Virus record (IMG/VR): IMGVR_UViG_3300014691_000055
Reading direction: 5' to 3' (one strand)
DNA length: 13,664 bases
Source of the DNA: a virus
Taxonomy: Duplodnaviria > Heunggongvirae > Uroviricota > Caudoviricetes
A program made the translations under genes and the position numbers. This document shows positions 2,391-13,664 of this stretch, one piece after another (the first letter of the stretch is position 1; each line of letters starts with the position of its first letter). The notes under the pieces are model-generated. The model had not been told where the DNA came from, made no database searches, and saw only the letters and a list, made by a program, of their open reading frames with translations.

Positions 2391-2921
2391 TCATTTGCCA
2401 TCCTGCTGCGGCGGTTCTGGTAGCGGCATCCAGTGAGTTGCCTGCTCAATGCCATTACCCGGCTTAATCGTTGCTTGTCCTCGCCGAAAGGTACTTCCGG
2501 TATTGCGTGCGGAGCATATTAGCGGCTCAACCAGATCACTATCGAAATTCACCGAAATAAGTACGTTCTGATTCTTTTTCGGCATTCGCTCACTACAGCT
2601 TATCCAACCATCCGGAATTACCGCCACTGGCTTGGCGGTATAAAGCGGTGTTATATCTGCCCGAAAATTACATGCTTTATGCAGCCGCACCCACCGTTCG
2701 ACTTCTGCTTTGTCAGAATACATACCAGTGAACGTGTTATATTCACGGTCAATTTTCGTGAATGTTACCTTCCACGCCACCGGCTCTGCTTCCAGCGATG
2801 CCAGCGCAATCCGTGCCAGTTCTTCCGCTTCTTCTGCTGGCAGTACAACGTTGCTACCAGGTCCGTATGTTTCGCGCCACTGCTTGATTGTCCGCAGTCG
2901 CTCTTTGGTAATAGTGGTCAT
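2391..2921 (-). CDS. Phage protein with C-terminal DUF551-like domain (176 aa)
   Basis: ATG start overlapping upstream stop (ATGA at 2918..2921); C-terminal motif WISCSERMPKK...HWMPLPEPP typical of DUF551 phage proteins (from memory). Confidence 0.7.
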   Translation of the reverse strand: MTTITKERLRTIKQWRETYGPGSNVVLPAEEAEELARIALASLEAEPVAWKVTFTKIDREYNTFTGMYSDKAEVERWVRLHKACNFRADITPLYTAKPVAVIPDGWISCSERMPKKNQNVLISVNFDSDLVEPLICSARNTGSTFRRGQATIKPGNGIEQATHWMPLPEPPQQDGK

Positions 2922-3283
2922 GCCGTAACCCCTTCTTGATATTTTTCAAACCAGAACACAACCGGGTCAGATTTCATTTCAACCAATCCCATACGAACCA
3001 GCGCTTTGCCTTTCCCGGACGCAAGAAATTCACGACGACCATCACTGATAATTCGCCGATAATCTTCCAGGCTACTGCAATGCTTGTGCAGATTGCATGG
3101 GTGGCATGCCGGAACCATGTTGGATATATCGTCACGTTCCTGGTGAAGCATATTCCCAGCAAAACGAATGACCGGTTTTACATGGTCTGCATGCCACTTT
3201 TCGCCAAGTTCGCAGCCGCAATAAGCACAGCGACCGCCGAACTTCATGCGCAGCTCTGCACGTTGTTTTTTCGTCAGTGCCAT
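2918..3283 (-). CDS. HNH endonuclease (approx 121 aa from ATG at 3283; track ORF begins at upstream TTG 3373)
   Basis: CAYCGC...HADHV...ACHPCNLHKH zinc-finger/HNH motifs; ATG at rc 3281..3283 with AAGGAA SD; stop overlaps next gene start. Confidence 0.72.
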   Translation of the reverse strand: MALTKKQRAELRMKFGGRCAYCGCELGEKWHADHVKPVIRFAGNMLHQERDDISNMVPACHPCNLHKHCSSLEDYRRIISDGRREFLASGKGKALVRMGLVEMKSDPVVFWFEKYQEGVTA

Positions 3284-3284
3284 T

Positions 3285-3503
3285 TCAGTTTTCCTTATAT
3301 GGATTAATTTTATTGTGCAGTGTATTGAACGACGCCCATACCACGTCGTTATACAATTCAATAACTGGCTCAATTATTTTCCCGATTGCCCAGACAAAAA
3401 TTAGCGGGGATATCGGTATCATCAACACGATAAACAGAATGAGAAACAGGAATTCTGTTGTTCTACTCTTTCGTGGATATTTTTTTCTGAATAATGTGAC
3501 CAT
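3285..3503 (-). CDS. Hypothetical small membrane protein (72 aa, one predicted TM helix FLFLILFIVLMIPISPLIFVWAIG)
   Basis: ATG at rc 3501..3503; stop 1 nt before the HNH start, so operon-packed; SD weak and ~26 nt upstream behind a GC hairpin. Confidence 0.45.
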   Translation of the reverse strand: MVTLFRKKYPRKSRTTEFLFLILFIVLMIPISPLIFVWAIGKIIEPVIELYNDVVWASFNTLHNKINPYKEN

Positions 3504-3942: not shown

Positions 3943-4189
3943 TTCTGTTCTCCCACGTTTTCAGACTTTCACCACAGAACGGGCAAAATGAAACTCGTAT
4001 TGGTGATTTAGAAAATTCACCGGAACGCAACATCACCAAATCAGGTCCACGAGTTAAACTCTCATTCCAGATTTTGTATATCAGCAGACCCTTTCGCGTC
4101 GTGCATTCAGCATCATGCTCAAGAGACTTTGCCAGTGCTGCACATGGTTCTATCTTGTTGCTATTAATTTGGCATTTTGACTCACTCAC
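3935..4189 (-). CDS. Hypothetical Cys-containing small protein (84 aa, C-terminal CPFCGE, possible zinc ribbon), GTG start
   Basis: GTG (rc 4187..4189) preceded by AAGGAGG SD at 6-nt spacing; start overlaps methyltransferase stop (GTGAGTGA). Confidence 0.5.
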   Translation of the reverse strand: MSESKCQINSNKIEPCAALAKSLEHDAECTTRKGLLIYKIWNESLTRGPDLVMLRSGEFSKSPIRVSFCPFCGESLKTWENRNE

Positions 4190-4667
4190 TGGTCGCCTCC
4201 TTCACAAAAATAATCCAGTGTGTTTTATCGTTCTTGCCGGTACGCTGGCTGATAACTGGTTTCGCGTTGGTTAGTGCCAATATCTGGCTAACCGGTATTT
4301 GCGTTTCATTCCATTTAAATATCAGAACGCCATGTGGACACAACACACGAAAGGCTTCTATAAATCCCTGTCGCAAATCATCACGCCAGGTATCTTTATT
4401 CAGCCGTCCATACTTCTTTCCCATCCAGGCGTTATCACCAACACGCTCAAGATGCGGAGGGTCGAATACAACAACCGGAAACGACGCGTCTGCAAACGGC
4501 AGCGCACGAAAATCAGCGATAATGTCAGGACTAATAATCAGTTGTCGTCCATCACATAGCGTATGTTTCTCTTTCCGGATATCGCTAAATATCGCCCGGT
4601 CGTCATTCTTATCAAACCAGAACATGCGGCTGCCGCAGCACATATCAAGAATGGCCGGTGCGCTCAC
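4182..4667 (-). CDS. Orphan phage DNA methyltransferase (161 aa; motif I LDMCCGS, motif IV DPPH), GTG start
   Basis: Translation shows AdoMet-binding and DPP[HY] catalytic motifs; GTG start with AGGAGGTGA SD, GTGA overlap with upstream stop; no cognate restriction gene adjacent. Confidence 0.72.
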   Translation of the reverse strand: MSAPAILDMCCGSRMFWFDKNDDRAIFSDIRKEKHTLCDGRQLIISPDIIADFRALPFADASFPVVVFDPPHLERVGDNAWMGKKYGRLNKDTWRDDLRQGFIEAFRVLCPHGVLIFKWNETQIPVSQILALTNAKPVISQRTGKNDKTHWIIFVKEATSE

Positions 4668-7011: not shown

Positions 7012-7650
7012 ATGAGCAAGCAAACAATATCTGAACGCATAACCCAACGTATGCATGCGCTAAACCTGAAAGGCAAAGACCTTGTCAATGCCACTGGCGC
7101 ATCAAAAGGCTCCGTAAGTCAATGGATGAACGGTGGAGGAGCGCCGTCCTCGCGTTACATAAGTTCACTGGCAAAGATATTGAAAGTAAACGAAAATTGG
7201 CTTCTTAATGGAGGAGAGTTAAATACAGGTGATTCGCTTGATCTATCTTTACCGCCGATAAAAACGGTTCCGCTACTATCACTTCAGCAGGCAGCAAGCT
7301 GGAGTGATTATATGAAAAATTCCTCAATAACCTCTTGTGTGCAGCTTGTCGGAGAAATCCCGGCCAATACCTTTGCAGTTGTTCTAGAGAGTGACAGTAT
7401 GTCAACATCTGGTGGGGGAGTTTCCATCCCAAATGGTTCAACAGTTTTTGTTGATCCCGATCGAACCGTACAACCAGGAAATATTGTCCTTGCCTTGCCC
7501 AAAGGGACCACAACACCTGTCATTCGTAAACTGGAGATTGAAGGGCCGGATATTCTTTTAGTCCCCACGAATCCTCGCTACCCTTCAATTATGCTGGATG
7601 ATCTATCTTGCATATTGGGCGTATGCTTTAAAATTCAACAAGATATTTAA
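7012..7650 (+). CDS. CI-like phage repressor (N-terminal HTH_XRE, C-terminal S24 LexA-like autopeptidase), 212 aa
   Basis: ATG 7012; HTH region GKDLVNATGASKGSVSQWMNG; C-terminal DSMSTSGGG...VIRKL Ser/Lys dyad pattern of S24 peptidases. Confidence 0.82.
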   Translation: MSKQTISERITQRMHALNLKGKDLVNATGASKGSVSQWMNGGGAPSSRYISSLAKILKVNENWLLNGGELNTGDSLDLSLPPIKTVPLLSLQQAASWSDYMKNSSITSCVQLVGEIPANTFAVVLESDSMSTSGGGVSIPNGSTVFVDPDRTVQPGNIVLALPKGTTTPVIRKLEIEGPDILLVPTNPRYPSIMLDDLSCILGVCFKIQQDI

Positions 7651-8768: not shown

Positions 8769-8959
8769 NNNNNNNNNNNNNNNNNNNNNNNNNNNNNNNN
8801 NNNNNNNNNNNNNNNNNNNNNNNNNNNNNNNNNNNNNNNNNNNNNNNNNNNNNNNNNNNNNNNNNNNNNNNNNNNNNNNNNNNNNNNNNNNNNNNNNNNN
8901 NNNNNNNNNNNNNNNNNNNNNNNNNNNNNNNNNNNNNNNNNNNNNNNNNNNNNNNNNNN
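8769..8959. other. Run of 191 N (assembly gap or masked sequence)
   Basis: Read directly; all track ORFs crossing it (X-containing translations) are artefacts. Confidence 0.99.
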
Positions 8960-9084: not shown

Positions 9085-9273
9085 ATGGAAACGTTATTAC
9101 CAAACGTTAATACGTCTGAAGGTTGTTTTGAAATTGGTGTCAGTATCAGTAACCCTGCATTTACTGAAGATGCCATTAATAAGAGAAAACACGAACGGGA
9201 GTTATTAAATCAAATATGCATTGTTTCAATGCTGGCCCGTTTACGTCTGATGCAAAAAGGATACTGGCAATGA
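9085..9273 (+). CDS. Hypothetical small protein (62 aa; METLLPNVNTSEGCFEIGV...)
   Basis: ATG 9085 with GAGGA SD 8 nt upstream; stop overlaps next start (ATGA 9270..9273). Confidence 0.45.
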   Translation: METLLPNVNTSEGCFEIGVSISNPAFTEDAINKRKHERELLNQICIVSMLARLRLMQKGYWQ

Positions 9274-9473
9274 ATACCACATTTGCACTTGTTCTGACGG
9301 TTTTTCTTGTTTCCGGTGAACCGGTTGACATGGTTACTGGCGTATACGACTCAATGAAAGAATGCATGGCTGCCGCAGCGGAACAGAAAATTCCCGGTAA
9401 CTGCTATCCGGTCGATAAAGTTATTCACATGAATAATAACGAAGTCCCGGCAGGATTAAAAACAGCACCGTAA
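9270..9473 (+). CDS. Small exported protein (67 aa) with N-terminal signal-peptide-like segment MNTTFALVLTVFLVSG and two Cys
   Basis: ATG 9270 with AAGGA SD; hydrophobic N-terminus then hydrophilic body; translationally coupled to upstream ORF. Confidence 0.5.
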   Translation: MNTTFALVLTVFLVSGEPVDMVTGVYDSMKECMAAAAEQKIPGNCYPVDKVIHMNNNEVPAGLKTAP

Positions 9474-9553: not shown

Positions 9554-12025
9554 ATGAGTAAAGTCTTTATTTGCGCCGCCATTCCGGACGAACAGGCAAT
9601 AAAGGAAGAAGGTGCAGTCGCTGTAGCCACTGCCATTGAAGCCGGCGACGAACGCCGCGCCCGTGCCAAATTTACCTGGCAATTCCTGGAGCAATATCCG
9701 GCTGCTCAGGACTGCGCTTATAAATTTCTTGTCTGCGAGGATAAACCCGGCATGCCCCGCCCTGCCATCGACTCCTGGGATACCGAATATATGCAGGAAA
9801 ACCGCTGGGATGAGGAATCCGCTTCCTTTGTTCCGGTCGAACCAGAATCCGATCCGATGAACGTCAATTTTGACAAGCTGTCCCTTGAAGTGCAGAACGC
9901 GGTCCTGGTTAAGTTCGGTACATGTGAAAACATCACCGTTGATATGGCGATTGACGCGCAGGAATTACTGCAGGAAAACGTGGCTACCTTTGACGGGCAT
10001 ATCGTTGAAGCACTGATGAAAACGCCTGAAATTAACGCTATGTATCCGGAACGCAAACTGTTCGCTATCGGATGGGTTAAACACAAATGTAATCCGGGTG
10101 CCAAATGGCCCGAAATTCAGGCTGAATTACGTAACTGGAAAAAACGGCAGGACGCAGAGCGCAAAGAGACTGGAAAATGCACGTCTGTTGTTGATCTCGC
10201 CCGCGCCAGAGTCAATCAACAGAACACTGAAAACTCAGCAGGAAAAATCAACCCAGTCACTGCCGCCATTCGTCGCCAATACAAGCAGACATGGAAAACG
10301 CTGGATGAAGAACTGGCCTACGCTCTCTGGCCTGGCGATATTGATGCCGGAAACATTGACGGCAGCATCCATCGCTGGGCAAAAAATGAAGTTATCGACA
10401 AAGATCGCGAAGACTGGAAGCGCATCTCCGCATCAATGCGCAAACAGCCTGATGCGATTCGCTACAACCGCCAAACTATTTTTGGCCTTGTCCGTGAACG
10501 TCCGATCGACATTCACAAAGATCCTGTAGCGCTGAACAAATACATCACTGAATACCTGGCGACAAAGGGCGTGTTTGAGGATGAAGAAACAGACCAGAGC
10601 ACTGCTGATATTCTCCAGCCGTCAGCAGCACAAACTGATGCAGTGGAAACTGAAGTATCTGATACCCAAAAAAATGAAAGCGCGCTGGAAACTGAACCAT
10701 CTGTAGAGCGTGAGGGACCGTTCTATTTTCTCTTCACCGATAAAGATGGCGAAAAATATGGCCGCGCAAACAAACTTTCTGGTCTGGATAAGGCGCTGGC
10801 TGCAGGGGCTACTGAAATCACGAAAGAAGAATATTTTGCCCGCAAAAACGGTACATACTCAGGTTCACAACAAAATACTGGTACATCTGACACGATCGCA
10901 CAACCAGAGCCGGTAAAAGTTACCGCTGACGAAGTAAACAAAATTATGCAGGCAGCCAATATCAGCCAGCCTGACGCCGATGAACTGCTTGCAGTATCAC
11001 GTGGTGAATTTGTTGCAGGGATTAGCGATCCGAATGATCCGAAATGGGTGAAGGGGATTGAAACCCGCGATTCTGTGAACCAGAACCAGCAAGAAATGGA
11101 ACAGAACGACCAGAAAGCGGAACAAAACAGCCCAAATACGCAACAAAACGAGCCAGAAACGAAACAATCCGAACCAGTAGCACAACAGGAACAGGAAAAA
11201 GTCTGCACCGCCTGCGGTCAGAGCGGTGGCGGCAACTGCCCTGATTGTGGCGCGGTGATGGGCGACGCAACATACCAGGAAACATTCGATGAAGAGAATC
11301 AGGTTGAAGTTCAGGAAAATGATCCGGAGGAAATGGAAGGCGCTGAACATCCACACAAGGAGAACCCTGGCGGCAATCAGCATCACGCCAGCGATAATAA
11401 AACTGGCGAGGCGACAGATCCCTTAATTAAGGTGAACAGTCATCATAAGCTCACATCCACCAGCAGAGCGGGGATTCATCTGATGATCGACCTTGAAACC
11501 ATGGGAAAAAATCCTGATGCCCCGATTATCTCAATAGGTGCAATATTTTTCGAGCCACAAACCGGAGATATGGGACCGGAATTTAGTAAGACTATCGATC
11601 TGGAAACTGCTGGCGGAGTCATTGATCGGGACACCATTAAATGGTGGCTTAAGCAATCACGCGAAGCGCAATCTGCCATTATGACCGATGAAATCCCGTT
11701 AGATGATGCACTGTTACAATTGCGGGAATTTATCGACGAAAACTCCGGTGAATTTTTTGTTCAGGTCTGGGGAAATGGAGCCAACTTCGACAACACGATT
11801 TTGCGCCGTTCATACGAACGGCAGGGGATCCCCTGCCCGTGGCGTTACTACAACGATCGCGATGTACGCACAATCGTTGAGCTGGGGAAAGCCATAGACT
11901 TCGATGCCAGAACGGCTATTCCATTCGAAGGTGAGCGCCATAATGCACTTGATGACGCCCGTTACCAGGCAAAATACGTTTCAGTTATCTGGCAAAAACT
12001 GATCCCGAGTCAGGCTGATTCTTAA
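9554..12025 (+). CDS. RecE-like (exodeoxyribonuclease VIII-like) large protein, 823 aa, whose C-terminal ~185 aa form a DnaQ-like DEDDh 3'-5' exonuclease domain
   Basis: Central region (SRGEFVAGISDPNDPKWVKGIETRD ... CTACGQSGGGNCPDCGAVMGDATYQETFDEENQVEVQENDPEEMEGAEHPH) matches my memory of Rac RecE; C-terminus has Exo I MIDLETMG, Exo II WGNGANFDNTIL, Exo III HNALDDARY. Confidence 0.8.
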   Translation: MSKVFICAAIPDEQAIKEEGAVAVATAIEAGDERRARAKFTWQFLEQYPAAQDCAYKFLVCEDKPGMPRPAIDSWDTEYMQENRWDEESASFVPVEPESDPMNVNFDKLSLEVQNAVLVKFGTCENITVDMAIDAQELLQENVATFDGHIVEALMKTPEINAMYPERKLFAIGWVKHKCNPGAKWPEIQAELRNWKKRQDAERKETGKCTSVVDLARARVNQQNTENSAGKINPVTAAIRRQYKQTWKTLDEELAYALWPGDIDAGNIDGSIHRWAKNEVIDKDREDWKRISASMRKQPDAIRYNRQTIFGLVRERPIDIHKDPVALNKYITEYLATKGVFEDEETDQSTADILQPSAAQTDAVETEVSDTQKNESALETEPSVEREGPFYFLFTDKDGEKYGRANKLSGLDKALAAGATEITKEEYFARKNGTYSGSQQNTGTSDTIAQPEPVKVTADEVNKIMQAANISQPDADELLAVSRGEFVAGISDPNDPKWVKGIETRDSVNQNQQEMEQNDQKAEQNSPNTQQNEPETKQSEPVAQQEQEKVCTACGQSGGGNCPDCGAVMGDATYQETFDEENQVEVQENDPEEMEGAEHPHKENPGGNQHHASDNKTGEATDPLIKVNSHHKLTSTSRAGIHLMIDLETMGKNPDAPIISIGAIFFEPQTGDMGPEFSKTIDLETAGGVIDRDTIKWWLKQSREAQSAIMTDEIPLDDALLQLREFIDENSGEFFVQVWGNGANFDNTILRRSYERQGIPCPWRYYNDRDVRTIVELGKAIDFDARTAIPFEGERHNALDDARYQAKYVSVIWQKLIPSQADS

Positions 12026-12097: not shown

Positions 12098-12349
12098 ATG
12101 AGCGAAGTAATCATGATTGTCTCTCCCGGCAAATGGGTATCCGAAGAGCAGTTAATTGCGCTGAAAGGAATAAAAAAAGGTACGTTAAAAAAGGCCCGGG
12201 AAAAATCGTTTATGGAAGGAAGGGAATATAAGCATGTCGCTCATGACGGTATGCCATGGGATAACAGTCCATGCTTTTACAACCTGGAAGAAATTGATCG
12301 CTGGATTGAGCGCCAGGCATCAGCGAGACCAAGACGTCATCTTACTTGA
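12098..12349 (+). CDS. Excisionase-like protein (lambda Xis-type, 83 aa; alternative ATG at 12113)
   Basis: Position immediately upstream of integrase; GREY motif region resembles lambda Xis DNA-binding fold pattern (memory). Confidence 0.6.
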   Translation: MSEVIMIVSPGKWVSEEQLIALKGIKKGTLKKAREKSFMEGREYKHVAHDGMPWDNSPCFYNLEEIDRWIERQASARPRRHLT

Positions 12350-12368: not shown

Positions 12369-13664
12369 ATGAGAGAAGTTGAAATGAAATATCCGACAGG
12401 CGTGGAAAACCATGGAGGGAAATTACGTATCTGGTTTGTTTATAAAGGCGTAAGAGTCAGGGAAAATCTGGGGGTTCCTGACACAGCAAAAAACAGGCGC
12501 GTTGCAGGTGAACTACGCTCCTCTGTTTGTTACGCAATAAAAACTGGTGTTTTCGACTATGCAAAACAGTTTCCCTCCTCACGCAATCTGGAAAAATTTG
12601 GTGAGGCCCGACAAGATTTAACCATAAAAGAACTGGCTGAAAAATTTCTGGCACTGAAAGAAACTGAAGTCGCCAAAACATCACTCAACACATACCGTGC
12701 CGTCATCAAAAATATCCTGAGCATAATCGGTGAAAAAAATCTTGCCTCATCGATTAATAAAGAAAAATTACTGGAGGTTCGTAAAGAGCTACTGACTGGA
12801 TACCAGATCCCCAAAAGTAACTATATTGTTACACAACCAGGGAGATCGGCTGTAACTGTAAATAATTACATGACAAATCTTAACGCCGTGTTCCAGTTTG
12901 GTGTTGATAACGGTTACCTGCCAGATAATCCGTTTAAGGGGATCTCGCCATTAAAGGAATCAAGAACCATTCCGGATCCTCTTTCGCGGGAGGAATTTAT
13001 CCGTCTTATCGATGCGTGCAGAAATCAGCAAGCAAAAAATTTATGGTGTGTTTCTGTTTATACTGGCGTTCGCCCTGGTGAGCTGTGTGCACTTGGATGG
13101 GAGGACATAGATCTGAAAAATGGAACAATGATGATCAGGAGAAATTTAGCAAAAGACCGTTTCACGGTACCAAAAACACAGGCGGGAACCAATCGGGTCA
13201 TTCATCTTATTAAGCCAGCAATCGACGCTCTCCGGAGTCAGATGACATTAACGAGACTGAGCAAAGAGCATATCATTGATGTTCACCTCAGAGAGTATGG
13301 CAGAACAGAAAAACAAAAATGCACCTTTGTTTTTCAACCTGAAGTGTCAGCGAGAGTAAAAAATTATGGTGACCATTTTACCGTTGACTCAATAAGGCAG
13401 ATGTGGGACGCAGCGATAAAACGTGCCGGACTCCGCCATCGAAAATCATATCAGTCGAGACATACTTATGCCTGCTGGTCGCTGACAGCTGGTGCTAACC
13501 CGGCATTTATAGCAAACCAGATGGGCCATGCAGATGCGCAAATGGTATTTCAGGTATACGGAAAATGGATGTCTGAAAACAATAATGCACAGGTAGCTTT
13601 GTTAAATACACAGTTAAGCGAGTTTGCCCCAACCATGCCCCATAACGAAGCAATGAAAAATTAA
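12369..13664 (+). CDS. Tyrosine-type site-specific integrase (N-terminal arm-binding DUF3596-like domain plus C-terminal catalytic domain), 431 aa; alternative start ATG 12384
   Basis: C-terminal motifs HTYACWSL...GHADAQMVFQVYGKW (H-x-x-R, catalytic Tyr context); N-terminal KLRIWFVYKGVRVRENLG arm-binding pattern; ORF stop at final window base. Confidence 0.88.
   Translation: MREVEMKYPTGVENHGGKLRIWFVYKGVRVRENLGVPDTAKNRRVAGELRSSVCYAIKTGVFDYAKQFPSSRNLEKFGEARQDLTIKELAEKFLALKETEVAKTSLNTYRAVIKNILSIIGEKNLASSINKEKLLEVRKELLTGYQIPKSNYIVTQPGRSAVTVNNYMTNLNAVFQFGVDNGYLPDNPFKGISPLKESRTIPDPLSREEFIRLIDACRNQQAKNLWCVSVYTGVRPGELCALGWEDIDLKNGTMMIRRNLAKDRFTVPKTQAGTNRVIHLIKPAIDALRSQMTLTRLSKEHIIDVHLREYGRTEKQKCTFVFQPEVSARVKNYGDHFTVDSIRQMWDAAIKRAGLRHRKSYQSRHTYACWSLTAGANPAFIANQMGHADAQMVFQVYGKWMSENNNAQVALLNTQLSEFAPTMPHNEAMKN

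Follow-up and report, generated by a model that had tools for sequence, protein, structure and literature searches.

RecET is a main recombineering tool, and a gene that resembles recE over most of its length and departs from it exactly where the nuclease should lie raises the question of what kind of protein a temperate phage has built on the RecE body. Such a gene lies in IMGVR_UViG_3300014691_000055, a Caudoviricetes DNA sequence of 13,664 nucleotides (nt) that is referred to here as the window. Its product of 823 amino acids (aa) had been proposed, from the letters of the DNA, to be a RecE-like scaffold with an acidic Q/E-rich linker and a four-cysteine (C4) zinc ribbon, to carry a DEDDh 3'-5' exonuclease in place of the canonical PD-(D/E)XK 5'-3' nuclease, to have no RecT or other annealase as a partner, and hence not to form a standard RecET module. 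The searches reported below bear out each of these proposals, with both the annealase and the PD-(D/E)XK domain absent. They also show that, in Escherichia coli genomes, the commoner partner of the RecE N-terminal region is this 3'-5' exonuclease and not the textbook 5'-3' nuclease.

A predicted DEDDh exonuclease at the C-terminus

A profile search of the 823-aa protein matched the Pfam family PF16473 (Rv2179c-like) at aa 642-813 with an E-value of 5e-67 and 225 bits (gathering score, 27 bits), covering profile positions 2-177 of 177. PF12684, the RecB-like PD-(D/E)XK family, gave no match in the window protein, while both RecE of E. coli K-12 and a sibling protein encoded by locus L011 matched it. 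The residues D646, E648, D746, H796, and D801 align with the five catalytic residues D7, E9, D119, H186, and D191 of T4 DexA, and the domain has a DnaQ-like fold. By sequence, the protein is assigned to the PF16473 family of DEDDh exonucleases, and its polarity is predicted to be 3'-5' by analogy with the characterised DEDDh members, which are 3'-5' exonucleases.

T4 DexA (PDB 8KEL) was the only solved protein found by sequence (E 1.8e-7), and a simple sequence search with the DEDDh domain of the window protein gave no match to Rv2179c (PDB 4HEC). Since the closest solved relative by sequence is a DNA exonuclease and Rv2179c went undetected, DNA is predicted to be a likelier substrate than RNA. 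DexA differs from the window protein in being a stand-alone protein of 227 aa from a virulent phage, with extra loops and an identity of about 21-28% to the window domain; it has been described as a DNA exonuclease with a role in intron homing (PMC12153337). Rv2179c, the founder of PF16473 from Mycobacterium tuberculosis, differs in being a chromosomal, stand-alone exoribonuclease.

The closest stand-alone relative found was a P22-like exonuclease (Salmonella phage g341c gp30; E. coli prophage WP_001016186), which is 55% identical, matches PF16473 over its full length, and is encoded, as the window gene is, in the early-left region of a temperate phage. However, this relative is a separate gene product of 182 aa, flanked by an Erf/Rad52-type annealase, ssb, and the anti-RecBCD gene abc2, whereas the window protein is fused to a scaffold and lacks these neighbours. 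The module order around the stand-alone relatives is cIII-kil-(Erf or Rad52)-ssb-exonuclease-abc2 (P22-type; L007 3995-4543 and L095 3501-4049).

The stand-alone homologues start MNHLMVDLETMG, and the fusions read ..HLMIDLETMG. Because M644 lies near the start of the stand-alone homologues, the DEDDh part looks like a complete, once stand-alone gene that was fused in frame. It had also been suggested that an internal ATG at this boundary could yield a free exonuclease domain. The position of M644 agrees with that suggestion, but only GGGGA, a weak ribosome-binding site, lies upstream of it, and M644 is most simply read as a relic of the fusion and not as evidence of an internal start.

The first 640 residues correspond to the non-catalytic part of RecE

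In a BLASTP comparison with K-12 RecE (exonuclease VIII of the Rac prophage), aa 262-625 of the window protein aligned with Rac RecE 278-591 (E 5e-61). The two proteins are nearly identical from the SRGEFVxGISDPNDPKW motif through the zinc ribbon and the acidic linker (RecE 480-591), and the alignment ends at RecE 591, just ahead of the PF12684 nuclease match of RecE at 615-850. The N-domain gave no direct match to PF06630, yet it is a remote homologue of the RecE_N family (hhalign probability 97%, E 9e-11, 182 columns). The core at aa 245-345 was matched by BLASTP in RecE, in a Klebsiella phage RecE-like protein, and in a protein of phage BUCT709. All the non-catalytic elements of RecE, namely N-domain, core, zinc ribbon, and acidic linker, are therefore found in the window protein.

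The NCBIfam RecE equivalog model NF007259 covered aa 240-626 only (model positions 263-603 of 877) and scored 265 bits, with the equivalog cut-off set at 1269 bits. Given that both the nuclease domain and the score fall short, the protein lies outside the RecE equivalog family. Like recE in Rac, its gene is placed ahead of xis-int in the operon, and the two proteins have in common the helical core, the GISDPNDPKW motif, the acidic linker, and the C4 ribbon; in contrast, RecE ends in a PD-(D/E)XK 5'-3' nuclease and is accompanied by recT, while the window protein ends in a DEDDh domain without recT. The equivalent position in Rac reads racC-recE-recT-ralR-xis-int.

The gene call is backed by two database proteins of 823 aa with 100% identity and coverage, one of them named from E. 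coli, and by a PHROG search in which phrog_2082 matched aa 1-822 of 823. The AlphaFold2 (AF2) model consists of four folded modules with low-confidence linkers between them (predicted template modelling score, 0.32). About 27 acidic versus 9 basic residues were counted in the linker at aa 505-640, and about 146 versus 91 in the entire protein; because the protein is so acidic, we infer that the scaffold more likely binds proteins than DNA. The Pfam DZR match to the zinc ribbon was weak and not significant (E 0.06).

Conservation was assessed across 120 cluster representatives from E. coli. Variation is lower in the folded modules than in the linkers, the small beta-hairpin/helix domain at aa 385-437 is the least variable segment, all four cysteines of the zinc ribbon are invariant (120/120), and catalytic residues and zinc cysteines taken together are kept in 119-120 of the 120. 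The conservation of these residues and the lower variability of the folded modules, with the open reading frame (ORF) intact, argue that the protein is functional.

The first 256 aa (window 9554-10321) are 85% identical to ydfE (b1577; L003 5079-5999), a pseudogene of the K-12 Qin prophage that is cut off by IS2. K-12 ydfE is therefore a truncated remnant of a scaffold-DEDDh exonuclease gene.

No annealase accompanies the exonuclease gene

The exonuclease gene sits between dicB/ydfD and xis/int, the site that recE-recT takes in Rac. In lambda, exo-bet-gam occupies the corresponding position. No recT was found between the exonuclease gene and xis/int, which follow directly, and no annealase was detected among the window ORFs by Pfam and PHROGs, the ORFs left unscanned being too short. 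The run of N upstream of dicB aligns with about 238 nt of the relative L001 that hold an Rfam match to the small RNA DicF (L001 11846-11897, 76.7 bits), which close relatives encode there along with its precursor, and the complete phage genome Tritos has DicF annotated at the same position; in the window itself the Rfam scan returned no family at threshold, DicF being matched only in L001 at the position of the gap. Its small length and its alignment with the DicF region rule out the gap as the hiding place of an annealase gene.

The search was extended to 85 related loci with a library of RecT, Erf, and Rad52-like proteins. In none of the 80 IMG/VR loci that carry the DEDDh fusion was a RecT, Erf, or Rad52-like gene found within about 6 kb (Redβ was absent from the BLAST library), and no annealase was found in the corresponding operon of Tritos. 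The window gene is not part of a two-component exonuclease-annealase recombinase of the RecET or lambda Red type.

One scaffold, three kinds of effector

A HMMER scan with aa 1-640 returned only 250 relatives among 1.84 billion representatives, and those that could be placed taxonomically all belong to the Enterobacterales (Escherichia, Shigella, Kluyvera, Klebsiella, Salmonella bongori, and Yersinia). Two homologue searches gave only relatives at 92% identity or more, and the diversity described here is drawn from the representative search. When 52 long representatives were dissected by BLASTP, they proved to form a modular family, each combining a YdfE-type or RecE-type (PF06630) N-domain, the helical core, which is present throughout, the GISDPNDPKW motif, an optional zinc ribbon, and one effector. 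The C-terminal effectors are of three kinds: the RecE PD-(D/E)XK nuclease, the DEDDh exonuclease, and a third domain that is common in Klebsiella prophages. Every combination of N-domain and effector occurs. For example, P0129 joins a RecE N-domain (listed as 100% identical to that of K-12) to a DEDDh domain without recT, and P0250 joins a RecE N-domain to a Rad52-like domain.

The locus L011 (7001-11013) encodes a sibling of 987 aa; over aa 1-499 it shares 89% identity with the window protein, and beyond that point the two are unrelated. The similarity stops exactly after GISDPNDPKW, where a different linker and a PF12684 PDDEXK domain (E 2e-12) follow, and the conserved motif thus seems, on sequence, to be a crossover point for mosaic exchange. 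The gene next to the L011 protein encodes RecT (PF03837, E 2.7e-44), and a ralR-like gene also follows. On the other side, L010 and about a dozen IMG/VR loci combine a RecE-type N-domain with DEDDh and have no recT, and in 80/80 IMG/VR loci the DEDDh domain is fused behind the linker/zinc-ribbon region. Taken together, the L011 arrangement and that of L010 and the IMG/VR loci indicate that the natural unit of exchange is "PD-(D/E)XK domain plus recT" versus "DEDDh domain alone".

The third effector was modelled in P0271, a Klebsiella protein (L006 3974-6103, phage BUCT709), with a mean predicted local distance difference test (pLDDT) score of 83.7. Within the PDB, Foldseek matched this model significantly only to human RAD52, in nine chains of its N-terminal domain (E 2.4e-5 to 5.6e-5, probability 1.00); the Foldseek output comes without query ranges, and we infer the region matched to be the third domain. 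The order of secondary structure in aa 442-591 of P0271 (helix, two short strands, helix, long strands, helix) fits RAD52, and a weak Pfam Rad52_Rad22 match (E 0.076) falls on the KKSLTDAxKKALSxLGF motif. The same model, whose N-domain is homologous to that of the window protein, had no other Foldseek match in the PDB. The third effector is thus likely, as judged from the model, to be a Rad52-like annealase domain.

Fusions of this kind are found in prophages of Klebsiella, Salmonella bongori, and Yersinia (P0271, P0130, P0250, and P0180). They resemble the window protein in N-domain and core (28% identity over aa 11-376, E 1e-28, for P0271, phrog_2489) and in their position before int, but they end in a Rad52-fold annealase domain with a coiled coil and have no nuclease. 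Databases call them "exodeoxyribonuclease VIII", "RecE family", or "exonuclease" (phrog_2489, phrog_7838), and these nuclease labels look like misannotation. The BUCT709 locus derives from OM816835.1, "Stenotrophomonas phage vB_SmeS_BUCT709". A Klebsiella pneumoniae protein that occurs on 87 contigs is listed as 100% identical to its 710-aa product, and the 120 listed relatives for which an organism is named come without exception from Klebsiella or E. coli; Stenotrophomonas may not be the true host.

These combinations lead us to a broader proposal, held tentatively and somewhat short of an even chance: that the N-terminal region of RecE, about 600 residues long, is an effector-agnostic delivery platform of enterobacterial temperate phages, and that the commonest E. 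coli form has replaced the whole of RecET with a 3'-5' exonuclease. If this is true, the scaffold would dock on one common host or DNA target, and the phages that carry the DEDDh form would recombine DNA or process its ends by a route dependent on a 3'-5' exonuclease but not on an annealase of their own. Since three mechanistically different recombination effectors stand on one scaffold, the function of the RecE N-terminal region becomes directly testable, and the three natural chimeras offer a way to find the binding target of the scaffold and the reason that full-length RecE behaves differently from its nuclease domain.

Prevalence in E. coli and existing annotation

The 826 nt that begin at the zinc ribbon and end with the stop codon were present (coverage 80% or more) in 4063 of 5426 complete E. 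coli genomes, about 75%, with a median of 2 copies and a maximum of 8. The last 826 nt of canonical recE were found in 1730 of the same 5426, so the "RecE" of E. coli is more often the DEDDh fusion than the canonical form. The complete gene is found in the deposited phage genomes mEp460_ev081, Tritos, HannyBb, PhiR42_1, and Evi, and in the PPompW prophages, which were found beside Stx2a phages; some genomic copies are interrupted by insertion sequence (IS) elements. Most E. coli strains, including enterohaemorrhagic E. coli with several copies, carry this uncharacterised early-phage nuclease, whose role could lie in recombination among prophages, in the exclusion of other phages, or elsewhere.

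It had been granted at the outset that the proposal would be weakened if this exact architecture were already the common form of RecE in characterised phages. Given that the scaffold-DEDDh protein has a full-length PHROG family of its own (phrog_2082), that its names at NCBI are "exonuclease", "3'-5' exonuclease", or "3'-5' exoribonuclease domain-containing protein", and that it is so prevalent, the architecture is largely a common and catalogued one and less new than the proposal implied, though no functional study of the protein was found in the literature. The sequence family is abundant and annotated at the domain level, and a description of it as an annealase-free RecE of swapped polarity was not found. 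Several phage records label the protein exodeoxyribonuclease VIII. The widespread use of this name for both DEDDh and annealase fusions would mislead surveys of phage recombination systems. One protein collection lists PF27430 and PF27432 for the window protein and PF27430 alone for the Klebsiella fusion, neither of which was matched in the local Pfam scan; PF27430 presumably covers the shared N-domain or core.

Possible role of the scaffold-bound exonuclease

The reading that we prefer, to which we give about an even chance, is that this early-operon gene encodes a 3'-5' exonuclease of DNA and that the RecE scaffold delivers it to take part in the processing of DNA ends. Its architectural component is very probable, and the biological role that it assigns is more doubtful, being slightly less probable than not. 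The product, encoded in the early-left operon (pL-type) of a lambdoid prophage of the Qin type, is built like beads on a string: aa 1-640 form the non-catalytic RecE scaffold and aa 641-823 a complete exonuclease of the DexA/Rv2179c type. It arose when one cassette was exchanged for another within the gene, at a point either in the linker or just past the GISDPNDPKW motif, and the unit replaced was the RecE PD-(D/E)XK domain together with recT. On induction or in lytic growth, the protein would act as a Mg2+-dependent 3'-5' exonuclease at DNA 3' ends, with the long flexible linker tethering the exonuclease to the scaffold. The scaffold would bring it to the partner or site that receives the RecE 5'-3' nuclease or the Rad52-like annealase in sibling phages, and it would act there in phage DNA-end processing or recombination with host functions and not with an annealase of its own. 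This reading is favoured by the ties of the scaffold to recombination through its other effectors (the RecE nuclease and the Rad52-like domain), and by the 55%-identical stand-alone homologues, which sit within Erf/Rad52-ssb-exo-abc2 recombination modules.

Several considerations weigh against it. RecA and annealases work on 3' tails, the very ends that a 3'-5' exonuclease removes, and an xonA mutation is reported to enhance RecET-mediated assembly (PMC13048471), so that a pro-recombination role is not obvious; moreover, the prophage has no annealase of its own. Because the large N-terminal region of RecE itself was still "of unknown function" in a 2023 review (PMC11611040), the idea of an adaptor draws on domain combinatorics only. 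PF16473 takes its name from the exoribonuclease Rv2179c, and an RNA substrate is possible. Finally, expression from pL is deduced from gene order, and the promoter and terminator scan gave sites no more numerous than in shuffled sequence.

It is also conceivable, though unlikely, that the protein is an HREX-type nuclease serving defence or superinfection exclusion, which would destroy the modified-cytosine DNA of incoming phages. EcD, a stand-alone E. coli homologue of DexA ("HREX" defence) reported in 2025, protects against T4 and digests 5-hydroxymethylcytosine (5hmC) DNA (PMC12153337). It is E. coli-encoded, belongs to the same exonuclease family as the window domain, and has an N-terminus, MIDTET, that resembles M644-IDLET. 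The abundance of the window gene in E. coli prophages, at up to 8 copies per genome, is likewise common for exclusion genes. However, gene order places the gene deep in a repressor-controlled early-left operon, and expression in the lysogen is therefore not expected. The DexA residues proposed to recognise 5hmC are replaced in the window protein, W152 by Y766 and D169 by A785 (the alignment near D169 is uncertain), and D90, a tetramer residue whose loss defines EcD-like dimers, is kept as D718. The window protein thus lacks the HREX combination of W152 and D169 kept with D90 lost. EcD, compared through its cloning primers and its description, differs in standing alone without a scaffold, in its C-terminus, and in having A at the position of DexA D90; since its primers encode MIDTET... 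and ...TIPETY, it is not the window protein. PADLOC returned a generic DEDDh match only, and the RecE scaffold would be left unexplained. The stand-alone E. coli homologue that was found is of the g341c type and is not EcD.

A role in host takeover or nucleotide scavenging, in which host or competitor DNA is degraded from its 3' ends during lytic growth, is improbable. It finds a precedent in the annotation of T4 dexA as "involved in T4 DNA replication and host DNA degradation" (PMC12153337). The early operon is shared with the host-directed dicB, DicF, and ydfD, but an exonuclease can work only where another nuclease has made ends, and the operon has no such enzyme nearby. Lambdoid phages are not known to degrade the host chromosome, and such a function would not need a scaffold of 640 aa common to a recombination nuclease and an annealase.

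We consider equally improbable an RNA-directed or anti-defence exonuclease that trims RNA 3' ends or destroys the multicopy single-stranded DNA of retrons, signalling oligonucleotides, or guide RNAs. By sequence similarity the domain leads to the DNase DexA and not to Rv2179c, the neighbours here and around the stand-alone homologues are genes of DNA recombination and integration, and no specific PADLOC or anti-defence signature was found. An ordinary RecET module with its annealase hidden in the 191-nt N run or just outside the window, or a decaying relic, as IS-interrupted genomic copies and the K-12 ydfE pseudogene might suggest, is the least probable of all by far, since a hidden-annealase module is refuted for the window by the DEDDh domain (not PD-(D/E)XK), the alignment of the short gap with the DicF region, and the count of 0/80 loci, with xis/int directly downstream, none in the Tritos operon, the ORF intact, and the catalytic residues conserved.

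Genetic context and coordinates

The window spans the early and immunity genes of a lambdoid prophage of the Qin type. On the plus strand the order is repressor, small ORFs, N run, dicB, ydfD-like gene, exonuclease gene, xis, and int (Table 1). The same order is annotated in E. coli D217-5, adjoining rspB (the Qin attachment region), and in the complete genome of phage Tritos. The minus strand carries a CII/YdaT-like gene, a replication initiator, and DUF977/Ren-like, methyltransferase-like, HNH endonuclease, and DUF551 genes.

Table 1. Positions of the exonuclease gene, its domains, and the neighbouring plus-strand features in the window.
Feature	Positions	Strand	Basis or remark
LexA-type repressor	7012-7650	+	
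N run, 191 nt	8769..8959	.	Aligned to relative L001
dicB	9085-9273	+	Annotation of L001, K-12 Qin map, phage Tritos
ydfD-like DUF1482 gene	9270-9473	+	Annotation of L001, K-12 Qin map, phage Tritos
Whole coding sequence, RecE-type scaffold plus predicted DEDDh 3'-5' exonuclease	9554..12025	+	823 aa plus stop; ORF list, translation
N-terminal domain, YdfE type, aa 1-207	9554..10174	+	AF2 block, pLDDT about 76-97
Helical core, aa 245-345 (RecE aa ~278-350)	10286..10588	+	AF2 pLDDT >90
Small beta-hairpin/helix domain, aa 385-437	10706..10864	+	AF2 block, pLDDT >90 for aa 391-430
Conserved motif, aa 471-499, LLAVSRGEFVAGISDPNDPKW	10964..11050	+	Kept in RecE 456-478 and in the Klebsiella RecE-like protein
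Acidic Q/E-rich linker, predicted disordered, aa 499-640	11048..11473	+	pLDDT <50 for aa 499-550 and 557-636
C4 zinc ribbon, C551-x2-C554-x7-C562-x2-C565, inside the linker	11204..11248	+	
Predicted DEDDh 3'-5' exonuclease domain (DexA/Rv2179c family), aa 641-823	11474..12022	+	
xis	12098-12349	+	ORF; annotation of L001
Tyrosine integrase	12369-13664	+	Pfam Arm-DNA-bind_2 and Phage_integrase; window ends at the int stop

Within the rightward early region, the HNH endonuclease gene (2918-3373, minus strand) and the DNA methyltransferase-like gene, phrog_954 (4182-4667, minus strand), lie beside the DUF551 and DUF977/Ren-like genes. At the start of the window, about 1.1 kb from the prophage genes, a complete gene for a LacY-family sugar/proton symporter occupies positions 1-1248 (Pfam E 1e-193). 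It also matches phrog_17800, a family with no assigned function, and could be either phage cargo or host flank.

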